From Candidatus Thorarchaeota archaeon (GTDB lineage Archaea > Asgardarchaeota > Thorarchaeia > Thorarchaeales > Thorarchaeaceae), in the NCBI GenBank assembly GCA_029858305.1, contig JAOUFI010000006.1, forward strand, positions 9,851-73,850: DNA of 64,000 bases, in the 5' to 3' direction. A program made the position numbers and the translations under genes. Below are positions 1,766-6,268 of the stretch, piece by piece. The notes beneath the pieces were generated by a model. It searched no databases, had not been told where the DNA came from, and saw nothing but the letters and a program-made list of their open reading frames with translations. The first letter of the stretch is position 1; the number at the start of each line of letters is the position of its first letter.

Positions 1766-3793
1766 TTAATCCTCATCTTCACCTGAATCGACGAAATCTA
1801 GTAGACGACTCAGTTCATCTAATGATTCATTATTTATAGGTGAGTTCTCAGAGTGCTGCTTAGTGTCATTAGAATCTTTTTTCTTGGTTCCACCTACAGC
1901 ACTATCCAGAGGGCCGAGAATAAGCTCTAACTCCTCAAGTGACTCGGCATCAATCTCTTCTCGAATGTCGGACTCCCCCTCGGTAGGAGTAGCCTCATCA
2001 CTCTTAAATGCTTCAAGAGCTTCATCGATTTCAGTATGAGAAACAAGATCAAGTTCTGCGGAGATGAATTCATCGGCCTCGAGAGCTTCGAATATAATTT
2101 CTTTGGCCATTTTTACGCCTCCGTTGTTTTCTTCAGCAATCGGTTCTATTCCGAGTTTCTCTTCAGGTGGAAGTTCCTCTTCAGCAAAATCGATTTGTGG
2201 TAATTGTTCTTCTACTTCTATCGAAGATTCTTCCTTTGGCAATTCAATGGAAATATCCATGGAGATTTCATCAATCTCTTTCGACTCCTCCATGTGGGAG
2301 GGTTCAAATCCTTCACCCTCTTCCAATTGCATGCCTGTCGCAAAAGCATCTTCTTCTGTAGTCTGGTCCGGTCCTATTGCTTCACTGAGAGCATCAGCTT
2401 TAGCAAGTTCGACTTCTTGGTGTATCAAATGTTCCTCAGAGAACTCTACTTCTAGAGGAAATGATTGAATCTCTGCTTCAAGCGGAGATACAGAGATTTC
2501 TACTTCCTCCTCTACTTCCTTAGTTTCCTCTATAATGGCCTCAGGAATCGGTTCAGAAGATGCAATCTCATCTTCGACTTTTACTTCAGGCTCGGGTTCA
2601 AAGAATTCTACTTCCGCCTCTGCTTCCTCAATCTCCTCTAACATCACATCAGGAGCTAGTTCCGGAGAAACAATCTCTTCTTTTGTTTCTTCTTCTTCAA
2701 AGAGATCTTCATCTACTTCTTCAATGACTTCTTCAATTATCTCATAGTCATTTAGGTTCTCAATGACATGTCCATCTTCGTCAACCAAGACTTCCTCGAC
2801 CACTTCAATAGTCTCGAATTCAGATTCTTCAATCTCTGCAGTTTCCCTTCGTTCCTGCATCGCATCTGTCTCAGCTATCGCTTCCTTGGTTGCGGCATCT
2901 GTAAACTTCAAGAGCTCGGATGCCGGAAGATCCGGAAGAGCAACACCAACATATTGTGCTGCAGCAGTCATCAAAATCCTTAGCATCTCATCACGCCTAG
3001 CCTTGTCAATTGCAACCATTGGAAAGGTAGGAATTCCTAGTATCTTCTGAACGACCTCAGGTTTCATAGCGTTTGGTTTATCCTGTTTATTAGCCAGAGC
3101 AAAGACGGGAACCTTCGGAGCGTCTCGTTTAATGAGCTTGAGAATGTCCTTACTGATTATCACGTTACGAAGAGCTGAATCACAAACTAAGAAGATTACA
3201 TCAGCTCCATGGAAATAGAATCGCCATAGTGTTCGAAAGCGCTCTTGTCCTGCAAAATCCCAGAGGACAAGACTGTAGTTGCCAAATCTGATGTTTTCAA
3301 CAGTTTCAAGATTGAGAGCTATTGTTGGGACATATTGCAGTGGTGGTGTGTCTCCAAGTAAAAGGTGGAGTGTTGTTGTTTTTCCAACACCACCCTCTCC
3401 AACTAGCGCAATTTTCAATCTGGTGGTCACAGATGGTTCAACAAGTTTTTCATACCCTTGCTTCACAGCGTCAAGTCCTGATTTTTTCAGCTCCTTTCTC
3501 ATGAGCTTCGATGCAGCTTCAACCTTCTCGAATATGCTTGATTCGTCTTCTCCTTTATCAGTAACAAACAGTAAAAGAAGGTCTGAAACCAAGTCCACTC
3601 CATGAAACTTGTGATCTCCTAATATTAGTGCTAGACTTTCTAGATGCGTATCATTGCTCTTTTCAGAACGAAGTTCTTCCCTTGTTTTGACATATTCGCT
3701 AAGAATCTCATGTGACACATCAACGGGCCAATATTTAGTGAATGCAATTATTTCTTGTGTTGAGATGCGTATAAGGAAGGTGTTGTGAATCAC
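1766..3793 (-). CDS. Arf-related small GTPase with N-terminal longin-like domain and long acidic C-terminal tail
   Basis: G1 GEGGVGKTT, G2 PTI, G3 WDFAGQ followed by RTLWRFYF, G4 ANKQD; ~125-aa N-terminal domain; ~380-aa Glu-rich tail. Confidence 0.85.
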   Translation of the reverse strand: MIHNTFLIRISTQEIIAFTKYWPVDVSHEILSEYVKTREELRSEKSNDTHLESLALILGDHKFHGVDLVSDLLLLFVTDKGEDESSIFEKVEAASKLMRKELKKSGLDAVKQGYEKLVEPSVTTRLKIALVGEGGVGKTTTLHLLLGDTPPLQYVPTIALNLETVENIRFGNYSLVLWDFAGQERFRTLWRFYFHGADVIFLVCDSALRNVIISKDILKLIKRDAPKVPVFALANKQDKPNAMKPEVVQKILGIPTFPMVAIDKARRDEMLRILMTAAAQYVGVALPDLPASELLKFTDAATKEAIAETDAMQERRETAEIEESEFETIEVVEEVLVDEDGHVIENLNDYEIIEEVIEEVDEDLFEEEETKEEIVSPELAPDVMLEEIEEAEAEVEFFEPEPEVKVEDEIASSEPIPEAIIEETKEVEEEVEISVSPLEAEIQSFPLEVEFSEEHLIHQEVELAKADALSEAIGPDQTTEEDAFATGMQLEEGEGFEPSHMEESKEIDEISMDISIELPKEESSIEVEEQLPQIDFAEEELPPEEKLGIEPIAEENNGGVKMAKEIIFEALEADEFISAELDLVSHTEIDEALEAFKSDEATPTEGESDIREEIDAESLEELELILGPLDSAVGGTKKKDSNDTKQHSENSPINNESLDELSRLLDFVDSGEDED

Positions 3794-3916
3794 TATTACT
3801 TCACCAGATTATCTAATAGATTATACACTGTTGTGGAGAATCCACTCAATATAGAGTAGGATATTACAGGCTTGATTAACTTGTTTTGTGTGTACAATCT
3901 TTGATTTTCAAGAAAC

Positions 3917-4162
3917 AAGTTAGATGTTGGGGGTTCAGAGAACCCCAAACATCCGTTGGAGCGTGTTCTTCCACAGGAGCGGCAAAATTCGTTTATGCGC
4001 AAGAACAGTAGCAGTTCACACTGCAATTAGGGACTAGAACTCGTGGGACCGTGTATTGCGAGTTCCTGACGGGGGAAGACCGCCACCTGTGTGAAGTTCA
4101 CAATGGATGAAACCCTAAATCGCCATAAGAAGCTTTCTGGTTTACCAAAAAAAGTTAGATGT
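3917..4162 (+). other. Structured non-coding element bounded by 11-bp direct repeat AAGTTAGATGT (candidate ncRNA or non-autonomous mobile element)
   Basis: Repeat at 3917-3927 and 4152-4162; several internal helices; G-U pairs favour the + strand; GC-richer than the AT-rich flanks. Confidence 0.55.
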
Positions 4163-4290
4163 GTCTATTTTCTTGATTCACAACTTATAGGTCTCTTTTT
4201 TGTAATATTCGCAAGAAAATATATTGGAATTGTGAATTTAGCAATACTGCTAATGTGTCAATAGTAAGCCCGCAATAGAATTTTCATAAC

Positions 4291-5430
4291 TCATCGAGGG
4301 AAGTTATCTCGTAGGAGCCTGAGATGCTGATGAACCATCTCCATTGCCTTAGGATCATCGGGAGTCTTTTCCAAGTCAGTTACAAGAGTTTGCAAGAAAT
4401 ACTCTGGGAAGAATAGCCGAACCCTAATATCATTCAGAAGAAACAGCCATTTATCATATTCACCAGAAGGTCCTTTCCTACGCTTCTCTGAAACAACTCT
4501 GAATTTCTTGAGAGTCTGAATTGCCTCCTTCAGCTCCTTTGGAGGAATACCTAGTGTAGCTTCCAATTCTGATATGTTAGCAGGACGCCTTCTGAGTTCA
4601 CTAAGTGTATCATAACAATCGGGGTCTGCTAATACTTGAGCCACAGATACCGTATCCTCAGGTGTCTTCTGCCATTCAGTGAGAAATTCAAGAACCTCCG
4701 ATTTGTACTCAGCTGCAAGTTCTGGATCGAGAACACTGCTTGCGGATTCCATTGCAACAAGCGGTGGGGCTCTAAATACTTCGAGGTCCTTAATCATAAA
4801 GACACAAGTACGGCCAATCTCATCGACCCATTCTGTCTTTACGAGTCCTAGTTCTTCAAAAGGAGCGATAATTGAGTCCACACTAACACTTGGAAGACCA
4901 GTGACCATCTTCAACCATTCTTCAAGTTCTTCTTTGGATATGCCTCCTTTCCAAAGTTTGGGAAAGACAGCCCTACTCACCTCATCGGAGAAAAGCCGTG
5001 CTAGTCGAGACTCATCGGTCATACCAGCAAGTCTGATAATTCGCCTGTAGGTGTTGTCCAGTTCATCCTGAAGTTCTGCGTCAGTCAATGCAACCACAGC
5101 ATTCGTAAGAGGAGTCACAATCGAGGTGATTGCAGCCTCGTACATCTTTGGATCCTCTGAGGGAGTAAGCAAGAGAGACACACAATACTGTTCCTCCTCC
5201 CTCACTATTCCAGTATAGTAGGATGCAACACCATACTCTTCACCACCAATTCGAATACTAAGTGATGAAAAACCAGCTGTGGCATCGCCCATGGCGTGAG
5301 AAGTGAAGATACGCATAATTTCTGTATTTAGATCTTCGCGATAATAATCAGCAAAGTCTGCAGGTACCTTCGCCTTCAGTACAGCTCCAATCTTTGAGTC
5401 CCAATCTATAAGCAGCATTGCAACCGGCAT
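4291..5430 (-). CDS. Longin/uDENN-like domain protein with C-terminal winged-helix domains
   Basis: N-terminal LLIDWDSKIGAVLKAKVP resembles the uDENN/NPRL2-type start motif; C-terminal ISELEATLGIPPKELKEAIQTLKKFRVV helix-turn-helix. Confidence 0.55.
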   Translation of the reverse strand: MPVAMLLIDWDSKIGAVLKAKVPADFADYYREDLNTEIMRIFTSHAMGDATAGFSSLSIRIGGEEYGVASYYTGIVREEEQYCVSLLLTPSEDPKMYEAAITSIVTPLTNAVVALTDAELQDELDNTYRRIIRLAGMTDESRLARLFSDEVSRAVFPKLWKGGISKEELEEWLKMVTGLPSVSVDSIIAPFEELGLVKTEWVDEIGRTCVFMIKDLEVFRAPPLVAMESASSVLDPELAAEYKSEVLEFLTEWQKTPEDTVSVAQVLADPDCYDTLSELRRRPANISELEATLGIPPKELKEAIQTLKKFRVVSEKRRKGPSGEYDKWLFLLNDIRVRLFFPEYFLQTLVTDLEKTPDDPKAMEMVHQHLRLLRDNFPR

Positions 5431-5575: not shown

Positions 5576-6268
5576 TCATTCTTGTGATGGATAATACCTG
5601 CTTTTTACTGCCTGTATTATGTGCTCATACACTATTTGTACGACTACATCAAGAGGTTGATGAGCATCAACTATCTTGAAAACTCCAGTATCCTGTTCTG
5701 CTATCTCAAGGTAGGTCTTACGAACCTCAATTAACCTGTCAAGTTTCTCAAATTGTAGATTTGCTACATTTTCTCGTCCTATTGCTCTCTCAAGTCCAAT
5801 ATCAGCTGCCACATCTAAAATAAAGATAATATCTGGTTCTGGGGCATGAATGTCTTCTCGGTTCCTTCGCAGTATTTCTCTCCAAGAGATACCAGTGACT
5901 ACTGATTGGTAGGCTCCGGTAGCAAAAAAGTAACGGTCCATGAGAACGACATATCCAGCGACCAGTGCTGGCACTATTCTGTTTTTAATATGCCATTCTC
6001 GATCTTTCACAAATAACTCAAGCTCTTCAGTAGGAGTGAGTTCACCTCGAGGAGTTCGTTCTCGGATTTCCTTCCCCCAGGGACTTTCATTTGTCGGCTC
6101 TCTCAGGTAAATAACATCATACCCGTCACTATGAAGGATTTCCACCAATTGGTGACATACTGCAGTTTTACCAGAACCATCAATGCCTTCTAAAACGAAT
6201 AGGAAACCTTTGCGATCAGATTCTGTTTTCAAATGGTAAATACTCCTGAGATAGCGCTGTTGCTTCAC
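5576..6268 (-). CDS. tmk: Thymidylate kinase (start may be ~6232)
   Basis: LEGIDGSGKT P-loop, REP, DRY, AYQ and PD..F.LD motifs. Confidence 0.92.
   Translation of the reverse strand: MKQQRYLRSIYHLKTESDRKGFLFVLEGIDGSGKTAVCHQLVEILHSDGYDVIYLREPTNESPWGKEIRERTPRGELTPTEELELFVKDREWHIKNRIVPALVAGYVVLMDRYFFATGAYQSVVTGISWREILRRNREDIHAPEPDIIFILDVAADIGLERAIGRENVANLQFEKLDRLIEVRKTYLEIAEQDTGVFKIVDAHQPLDVVVQIVYEHIIQAVKSRYYPSQE

Follow-up and report, generated by a model that had tools for sequence, protein, structure and literature searches.

A structured RNA gene at the locus

The analyzed window, a 64,000-nucleotide stretch of a Candidatus Thorarchaeota archaeon genome (assembly GCA_029858305.1, contig JAOUFI010000006.1), carries between a gene for a 379-amino acid (aa) protein and a gene for an Arf/Roc-like small GTPase a non-coding stretch that a first-pass annotation of the sequence had flagged as a structured, possibly mobile element. 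This stretch proved to contain one single-copy gene, which encodes a folded RNA of ~190 nt, representing a new RNA family without relatives among the described families and modeled here as a scaffold acting in trans. The gene, its fold, its strand, and its range taken together were regarded as highly probable, while the full statement of a stand-alone structured non-coding RNA (ncRNA) gene plus a scaffold role in trans was considered evenly balanced.

The RNA gene occupies positions 3910-4101 on the minus strand, including a 185-nt core from 4101 to 3917 matched by covariance model R1 (L001:1518-1702(-), equal to window 3917-4101), and position r of the RNA in minus sense corresponds to window coordinate 4102 - r. 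The RNA measures ~190 nt here, and its counterparts in other genera span ~190-250 nt. The spacing of the promoter and the T-tract predict a 5' end at ~4101 ± 3 and a 3' end within the T-rich tract at 3910-3918. The element limits initially drawn at 3917-4162 were replaced by ~3910-4101 plus a promoter at 4124-4138.

The open reading frames over the element were short and unconserved, and a conserved coding frame was ruled out because homologs differ by indels of 1, 2, 17, and ~25 nt. ARAGORN identified no tRNA or tmRNA within the window. Folding z-scores of a 261-nt stretch were -2.4 on the plus strand and -4.0 on the minus strand. No RNA run was listed for positions 3300-4800. In run X1, labeled metatranscriptomic and flagged "probably DNA," three contigs of 50-133 nt with adaptor-like loose ends fell over 3967-4082, and the missing cover of the flanks was taken as evidence neither way on expression.

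Fold and covariation of the RNA

The RNA folds into four helices, P1 to P4, that are conserved and covarying and that all lie, together with their joining segments, on the minus strand. P1 is a long irregular closing helix (helices 1-3) in which the 5' strand at 4079-4101 pairs with the 3' strand at 3963-3983; both sides had changed in 14/15 of its pairs and 84-93% of cells were paired. This helix is the core of the long imperfect helix recognized in the first-pass annotation and shows compensatory changes in relatives, while the proposed outer extension CATCCGTTG/CAATGGATG was dropped as it lies in the unconserved spacer (4101-4118) that separates the TATA box from the beginning of the RNA. 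A suggested pseudoknot, TTAGGG/CCCTAA, makes use of the same spacer and was likewise discarded.

Following P1, the single-stranded segment J1/2 (CUUCCCCCGUCA, 4067-4078) contains a CCCGU core that is invariant (columns C6-T10 of alignment A9, 35 sequences) and leads into the P2 hairpin (4036-4066), formed by GGAACUCG at 4059-4066 with CGAGUUCU at 4036-4043 and closed by a 15-nt loop (4044-4058) that carries ACGGUCCC. A second GUCCC motif is located in J2/3 (4026-4035), reading GCAUUGGUCCCC in most other genera, and is followed by P3 (4011-4024), a variable hairpin with GCAG/CUGC here that is replaced, longer, or lost in other genera and in which both sides had changed in 5/5 pairs (helix 5). 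J3/1 (3984-4010) combines the near-invariant CUUGCGCAUA (3994-4003) with the U-tract GAAUUUUG (U's at 3984-3987). Beyond the P1 3' strand, positions 3922-3962 (helices 6-7) comprise the linker GCUCCAAC (3955-3962), after which comes P4 (3922-3954), a conserved 3' hairpin, and the RNA ends with the tail CUAACUU and then the T-rich tract. The hairpin earlier noted at 3923-3953 was recovered by a repeat tool and corresponds to P4, and the inner hairpins GCAG/CTGC (4011-4024) and GAACTCG/CGAGTTC (4036-4066) are P3 and P2, respectively; all three are accompanied by compensatory changes in relatives.

When 26 sequences representing 10 genera were aligned under guidance of the model, standard pairs filled 91.9% of 1008 cells compared to 75.5% after shuffling, and changes on both sides were found in 31/43 pairs. 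The covariation score was 0.449 versus 0.189 for shuffled alignments (reached by 0/500 shuffles) and fell to 0.06-0.08 when partners were slid by 1-3 columns. P2 and P4 were rechecked on plain MAFFT alignments made without the structure. P2 displayed the series G-C/G.U/A-U along with the compensatory stems AAUCUC/GAGAUU (genus g19, L079) and ACCUGU/ACAGGU (genus g28, L122), and P4 displayed GCGG/CCGC, GCGG/CUGC, and GCAG/CUGC, again with the series G-C, G.U, A-U and with several different upper stems. The first MAFFT alignment, which comprised all genus homologs, had misaligned clades and yielded a poor RNAalifold consensus; it was superseded by the model-guided alignments.

The invariant or near-invariant unpaired elements were CCCGU, ACGGUCCC, (GCAUUG)GUCCCC, CUUGCGCAUA, the U-tract before the P1 3' strand, and ACGGAUGCGG. 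Two pseudoknot candidates, CCGU(C)/(G)ACGG and CGCAU/AUGCG, had invariant strands with few variants that by inspection were uncompensated. Lineage-specific additions behave like expansion segments and include a GAAA-capped hairpin of 17 nt that separates J1/2 from P2 in five genus members, a 25-nt insert within P1 in two genus members, an extra 5' hairpin in several genera, and an extra hairpin between P1 and P4 in g15, g26, and g18. In the g27 homologs (L100 and L101), only the 3' half of R1 was matched (104-119 nt, E ~0.002) and a different hairpin appeared to occupy the place of P2; the g27 RNA may be a reduced or remodeled form.

Strand and promoter

The RNA is almost certainly read from the minus strand. 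The first-pass annotation had taken the G-U pairs to favor the plus strand, making the element antisense to both neighbors. Across the family this bias was reversed, with 97 G.U versus 20 A.C cells over the 43 pairs in minus sense (the numbers swap on the plus strand) and 25 G.U versus 4 A.C/C.A for P2 on the unfitted MAFFT alignment, and the RNA is co-directional with the genes on either side. The consensus-structure energy was lower on the minus strand in 24/26 sequences by a mean of 7.0 kcal/mol. Loops of the UNCG type had the same polarity: CUUCGG occurred 15 times in minus sense and 0 times as the complement, and UNCG loops closed by 3 bp numbered 30 on the minus compared to 3 on the plus strand.

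Upstream of the RNA, the motif AARG.TTCWTATG was found in 40/44 homologs. In the window it forms a TFB-recognition element (BRE)/TATA-like promoter at 4124-4138 on the minus strand, reading AGAAAGCTTCTTATG as a whole and composed of AGAAAG (4133-4138), a C, and TTCTTATG (4124-4131). The spacer from this box to the conserved RNA start is unconserved in sequence and measures 20-22 nt within the genus and 22 nt in the window. The box resembles those before the tRNA genes (e.g., CGAAGACTTTATGAG), the RNase P RNA gene, and the signal recognition particle (SRP) RNA gene of the same genome, and T-rich sequence is present downstream of P4. The locus consequently has what is expected of an archaeal transcription unit, i.e., a BRE/TATA box ~22-27 nt upstream of the start and a terminal U-tract, with both ends being predicted, and transcription of the RNA from its own BRE/TATA promoter is strongly supported by these sequence signals.

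Distribution and synteny

BLASTN identified one copy of the element in 19/24 other genomes of the genus and none in 16 more distant genomes, and an exact core pattern was found in 24/27 genus genomes and 0/372 other genomes of the phylum. Covariance model R1, built in minus sense from 15 sequences of one genus clade (198 positions, 43 pairs), gave one full-length match in 72/85 other genomes of the family, covering 12/16 genera, with second matches in three genomes that were partial or binning duplicates. Divergent copies in genera g18, g21, and g28 were found by synteny and confirmed by a core model, R2 (35 sequences, 102 positions), raising the count to 15/16 genera; in the remaining genus, g20, the contig of the sole genome ends inside the upstream gene. 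When R2 was applied to 150 genomes sampled evenly across the phylum, 22/25 genomes from this Thorarchaeota family were matched compared to 0/125 from 26 other families. As far as searched, the RNA is confined to one Thorarchaeota family.

The sister family is represented by a single genome, in which an ortholog of the 379-aa protein gene (65% identity) is followed by ~126 nt containing none of the motifs of the RNA and then by the GTPase gene. This implies either a gain of the RNA within the one family or its loss elsewhere. At 20 loci of the genus the element is flanked by one and the same co-oriented gene pair, with the 379-aa gene found at 19/20 and the GTPase gene at 17/20, and at least two of the misses (L012 and L015) are loci cut at a contig end. 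In loci from other genera, the 379-aa gene precedes the RNA in 38/38 cases, and the GTPase gene is located on the far side of the RNA in 35/38. In five loci from four genera (g15 L091 and L102, g26 L093, g23 L082, and g24 L089) a convergent gene abuts the 3' end of the RNA, which is therefore kept without a downstream co-oriented gene; these loci and the putative promoter of its own argue for a separate transcription unit.

Two variants of the RNA locus were present in bin G011 on contigs C21 and C103 (L032 and L012/L048). The contamination of this bin is ~7% and the variants are probably two strains binned together, a true duplication being less likely.

Comparison with known RNA families

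No match at the gathering score was obtained in the whole window with the 4227 models of Rfam 15. At E <= 10, positions 3780-4300 gave five weak matches only (13-16 bits, E 2.2-8.5), none on the body of the RNA: rliE (4115-4211, minus) and Afu_264 (4088-4181, minus) fell mainly over the promoter region, with Afu_264 (13.2 bits, E = 7), the sole C/D match to overlap the RNA, covering its first 14 nt, and the other C/D match, snoZ103 (16.4 bits) at 3783-3869, was outside it. Likewise, 13 homologous loci of other genera (54,692 bases) had no Rfam match at E <= 1. The first-pass annotation had been unable to match the element to SRP RNA or RNase P RNA, and the Rfam search of the element agreed in giving neither. 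These RNAs are encoded elsewhere in the genome, with the SRP RNA (RF01857) at G000:C50:9890-10201 (95 bits, just under the 96.5-bit cut-off) and the RNase P RNA (RF00373) at G000:C44:45535-45873 (157 bits). With its conserved, covarying fold and no Rfam match, the element was upheld as an uncharacterized ncRNA, and literature searches turned up no paper on such an RNA in the material they covered.

Guide RNA and spliceosomal classes were compared by inspection. The P4 alignment has an internal loop of ~2x2 nt and no K-turn signature, unlike an H/ACA guide RNA; the tail reads ACA in many homologs and AUA, AAA, or none in others. The minus-sense alignment contains no conserved C (RUGAUGA) or D (CUGA) boxes of a C/D box small RNA (sRNA), and neither a U1-U6 match in Rfam nor an ACAGAGA box or AGC triad was seen. 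The sequence UAGCAUUGGUCCCCUUGC may resemble part of U6.

Orphan structured ncRNA classes discovered by comparative genomics, such as raiA, OLE, ROOL, and GOLLD, are bacterial. The Thorarchaeota RNA is like them in having a covarying secondary structure, invariant junction nucleotides, its own transcription unit, and no known function, and differs in being archaeal, ~190-250 nt long, restricted to one family, and without detectable likeness in sequence or structure to any Rfam 15 model. It is also like the SRP and RNase P RNA genes in being a single-copy gene of the abundant, stable RNA type with a similar promoter box, while matching neither model. Asgard archaea are the closest known relatives of eukaryotes, and to our knowledge their ncRNA content beyond rRNA, tRNA, SRP RNA, and RNase P RNA has barely been described. 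With a well-supported fold, a defined promoter, a one-family range, and ~45 examined homologs, the material is sufficient to seed an Rfam family and annotate genomes.

Sequence motifs and possible function

Over 41 RNAs, the motif GUCCC occurred 2.2 times per RNA (range 1-4), whereas dinucleotide shuffling predicts 0.31. Additional copies are found at non-homologous positions: g29 and g24 have a third one, g17 carries one in the loop of a hairpin inserted there, and L107 has one in its P3 loop. Three or more consecutive U's were present just 5' of the P1 3' strand in 38/40 RNAs, and three LSM-domain genes were identified in the genome of the window.

A stable RNA acting in trans as the scaffold of an RNA-protein particle is our tentative proposal, held at somewhat below even probability. 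In this model, the 2-4 unpaired GUCCC(C) motifs in the P2 loop, in J2/3, and in separately gained loops would be docking sites for a sequence-specific RNA-binding protein, and the junction U-tract GAAUUUUG and the 3' U-tail could hold archaeal Sm-like proteins; the RNA would either assemble or titrate the GUCCC-binding protein. Repeated display of one short motif amid variable flanking sequence is more suggestive of a protein-binding site than of an antisense seed. Protein-titrating RNAs such as CsrB and RsmZ carry repeated GGA motifs, and the present RNA likewise bears one short motif 2-4 times within its unpaired loops and junctions, in a copy number that varies by lineage through added hairpins. 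Unlike CsrB/RsmZ, the motif is GUCCC rather than GGA, copies are far fewer, and the RNA has a mostly rigid conserved fold rather than a string of similar hairpins.

As in Sm-class RNAs and in archaeal sRNAs bound by Sm-like archaeal proteins, a single-stranded purine-A-U(3-5) tract is placed between helices (38/40), and a 3' hairpin, a U-rich end, and LSM-domain genes in the genome are also shared; these Sm-type traits, like the sponge-like ones, are no more than suggestive. Unlike Sm-class small nuclear RNAs (snRNAs), the RNA showed no snRNA signature on inspection and matched none of the U1-U6 models of Rfam. An Asgard-specific particle like the eukaryotic Sm-class small nuclear ribonucleoprotein (snRNP), with an interhelical single-stranded RAUUUUG-type site, a conserved 3' hairpin plus U-tail with Sm-like proteins, and GUCCC loops recruiting a second, sequence-specific protein or RNA, is a speculative and rather improbable extension of the scaffold model. 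If true, it would represent a lineage-specific snRNP-like machine in the close archaeal relatives of eukaryotes, beside a gene pair for a longin-like protein and a small GTPase. The repeated unpaired GUCCC motifs and the U-tract are handles for finding the partner of the RNA, and a partner of the Sm-like or another eukaryote-type RNA-binding class would have bearing on the origin of small RNA-protein particles.

Alternative explanations

Several observations weigh against a stand-alone minus-strand RNA with a scaffold role, those concerning the strand being weaker than the evidence for minus. Free minimum free energy (MFE) folding slightly favors the plus strand in 19/27 sequences by a mean of 1.8 kcal/mol, a comparison superseded by the consensus-structure energies. 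Small GNRA-closed hairpins number 105 on the plus and 16 on the minus strand, and most of those on the plus strand are untenable as they overlap P2 or have three U.G pairs only. A UGC-GCAA-GUA mini-hairpin over CUUGCGCAUA (3994-4004), present in 25/44 homologs and backed by one compensatory variant (g18) and three wobble variants, is the sole feature that fits the plus strand better. The covariation counts rest on an alignment of 26 sequences that was fitted to the covariance model, and GUCCC copies at homologous places are non-independent observations. The candidate partner families RRM_1 and TROVE were not found in the genome assembly of the window, which is 88.9% complete. Finally, some read-through or co-transcription from the 379-aa gene is possible; T-runs between its stop codon and the promoter reach at least 5 in only 16/44 loci and at least 4 in 33/44.

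The scarcity of long T-runs also speaks for a cis-acting part of an mRNA, either a 5' leader or attenuator of the GTPase gene or a 3'-untranslated region element processed from the 379-aa transcript, as does the position of the RNA between two co-oriented genes on their strand, with the 379-aa gene preceding it in every locus outside the genus and the GTPase gene within ~100-150 nt downstream in most genera. A riboswitch or leader would always lie upstream of a co-oriented gene, and the RNA is kept in the five loci where the next gene is convergent; it is also preceded by a suitably spaced, conserved BRE/TATA box of its own, and both genes occur in the sister family 126 nt apart without it, so that a cis role is improbable. 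Regulation by base-pairing in trans, with the unpaired C-rich motifs (GUCCC, CCCCGUC) as seeds against G-rich mRNA sites, recalls the UCCC/C-rich-loop sRNAs of Firmicutes, e.g., RsaE/RoxS, and is in line with several such motifs, an own promoter, and a U-tract and U-tail as candidate sites for Sm-like proteins. The complementary GGGAC was, however, unenriched over the 40 nt that precede each of 1873 predicted start codons (32 versus 30.4 expected), where GGAGG was enriched 3.3-fold and GGTGA 2.4-fold; the constant part of the motif is just 5-6 nt with flanks that vary between genera, and the RNA is bigger and much more structured than typical seed-type sRNAs, rendering this explanation unlikely. 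A catalytic or ligand-binding RNA (a ribozyme or trans-acting aptamer) with the invariant junction strands as its tertiary core would account for the clustering of invariant unpaired nucleotides at a multi-helix junction (CCCGU, ACGGUCCC, CUUGCGCAUA, and ACGGAUGCGG) and for the free variation of the peripheral helices, a pattern typical of tertiary-core RNAs. We consider it a doubtful candidate in view of the lack of a Rfam ribozyme or riboswitch match, of a covarying pseudoknot (the candidate strands never vary), and of an associated enzyme or transporter gene hinting at a ligand.

A non-autonomous mobile or retro-copied element (MITE-like, i.e., resembling miniature inverted-repeat transposable elements, circularising, or guide-type) on the plus strand, bounded by a target-site duplication (TSD), had been put forward alongside an 11-bp direct repeat. 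The repeat, AAGTTAGATGT, indeed occurs exactly twice in the 64-kb window (0.05 expected), at 3917-3927 and 4152-4162 on the plus strand, and its extension to 14/15 bases was borne out; an 8-bp inverted repeat just outside (3908-3915 and 4169-4176) and the empty site in the sister family also favor mobility. However, the direct repeat is private to the genome of the window (1/27 distinct genus homologs), and in the other 26/27 the longest word common to both borders is 4-7 bases, at chance level. Its left copy belongs to the RNA, accounting for the P4 base and for the 3' tail, while the right copy lies upstream of the promoter, outside the conserved RNA, beside an A7 run (4147-4153; T7 on the minus strand). 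A MITE has a TSD and terminal inverted repeats at its ends; here the sole terminal inverted repeat was seen in the window's genome only, lies outside the direct repeats, and is estimated to be near chance within 321 bp. Like MITEs, the element is short, non-coding, and structured with flanking direct repeats in this genome; unlike MITEs, which occur as several copies at different places, it is single-copy (one match in its own genome, and one full-length match per genome in the family) with a synteny fixed in 15 genera. The empty site sought as a sign of insertion does exist, yet its occurrence in the sister family points to an old gain or loss and not to a recent insertion. No IS110, TnpB, or reverse-transcriptase genes were among the neighbors examined, and the strand evidence points to the minus strand. 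A mobile origin is thus extremely unlikely.

Read in minus sense, the right copy of the repeat gives ACATCTAACTT and then further T's, seven in total (4143-4162), and is located ~130 nt past the 379-aa stop codon; with its T7 run it resembles a terminator for the 379-aa gene. The RNA itself has a 3' tail (3910-3927, minus) that reads ACATCTAACTTGTTTCTT and has 11 nt in common with this right-hand end in the window's genome only. The direct repeat may be a small local duplication of a terminator.

Neighboring genes

The upstream neighbor (4291-5430, minus), which the RNA gene always follows, encodes the 379-aa protein that has no Pfam family. In NCBIfam and PDB, the sole resemblance was to an ArsR/SmtB-like winged helix, below threshold and confined to residues 262-318, and a protein atlas placed the protein in unnamed Thorarchaeota/Promethearchaeota (Asgard) clusters. 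The protein is unusually conserved: its identity is 94-100% within the genus and 83-94% across other genera, compared to about 50-81% for the GTPase, and 25-34% in other Asgard classes, where paralogs exist.

The downstream neighbor (1766-3793, minus) encodes a 675-aa Arf/Roc-like small GTPase with an acidic tail. The protein consists of a ~120-aa N-terminal domain, an Arf/Roc/Ras-type G domain at residues 123-262, and a last part of ~400 residues that is strongly acidic, E/D-rich, and of low complexity, and its conservation in relatives is limited to the first 300-350 residues. Between the RNA and the GTPase gene, a genus-conserved box at ~3868-3895 (minus), which reads ATTAACTTGTTTTGTGTGTA on the plus strand and TATTTTGATGTTCTGTGTATCTA in the other clade, may be a promoter or regulatory site of the GTPase gene. 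Upstream of the 379-aa gene and on the same strand, a thymidylate kinase gene was identified at 5576-6268 (minus; Pfam PF02223, E = 5e-40).

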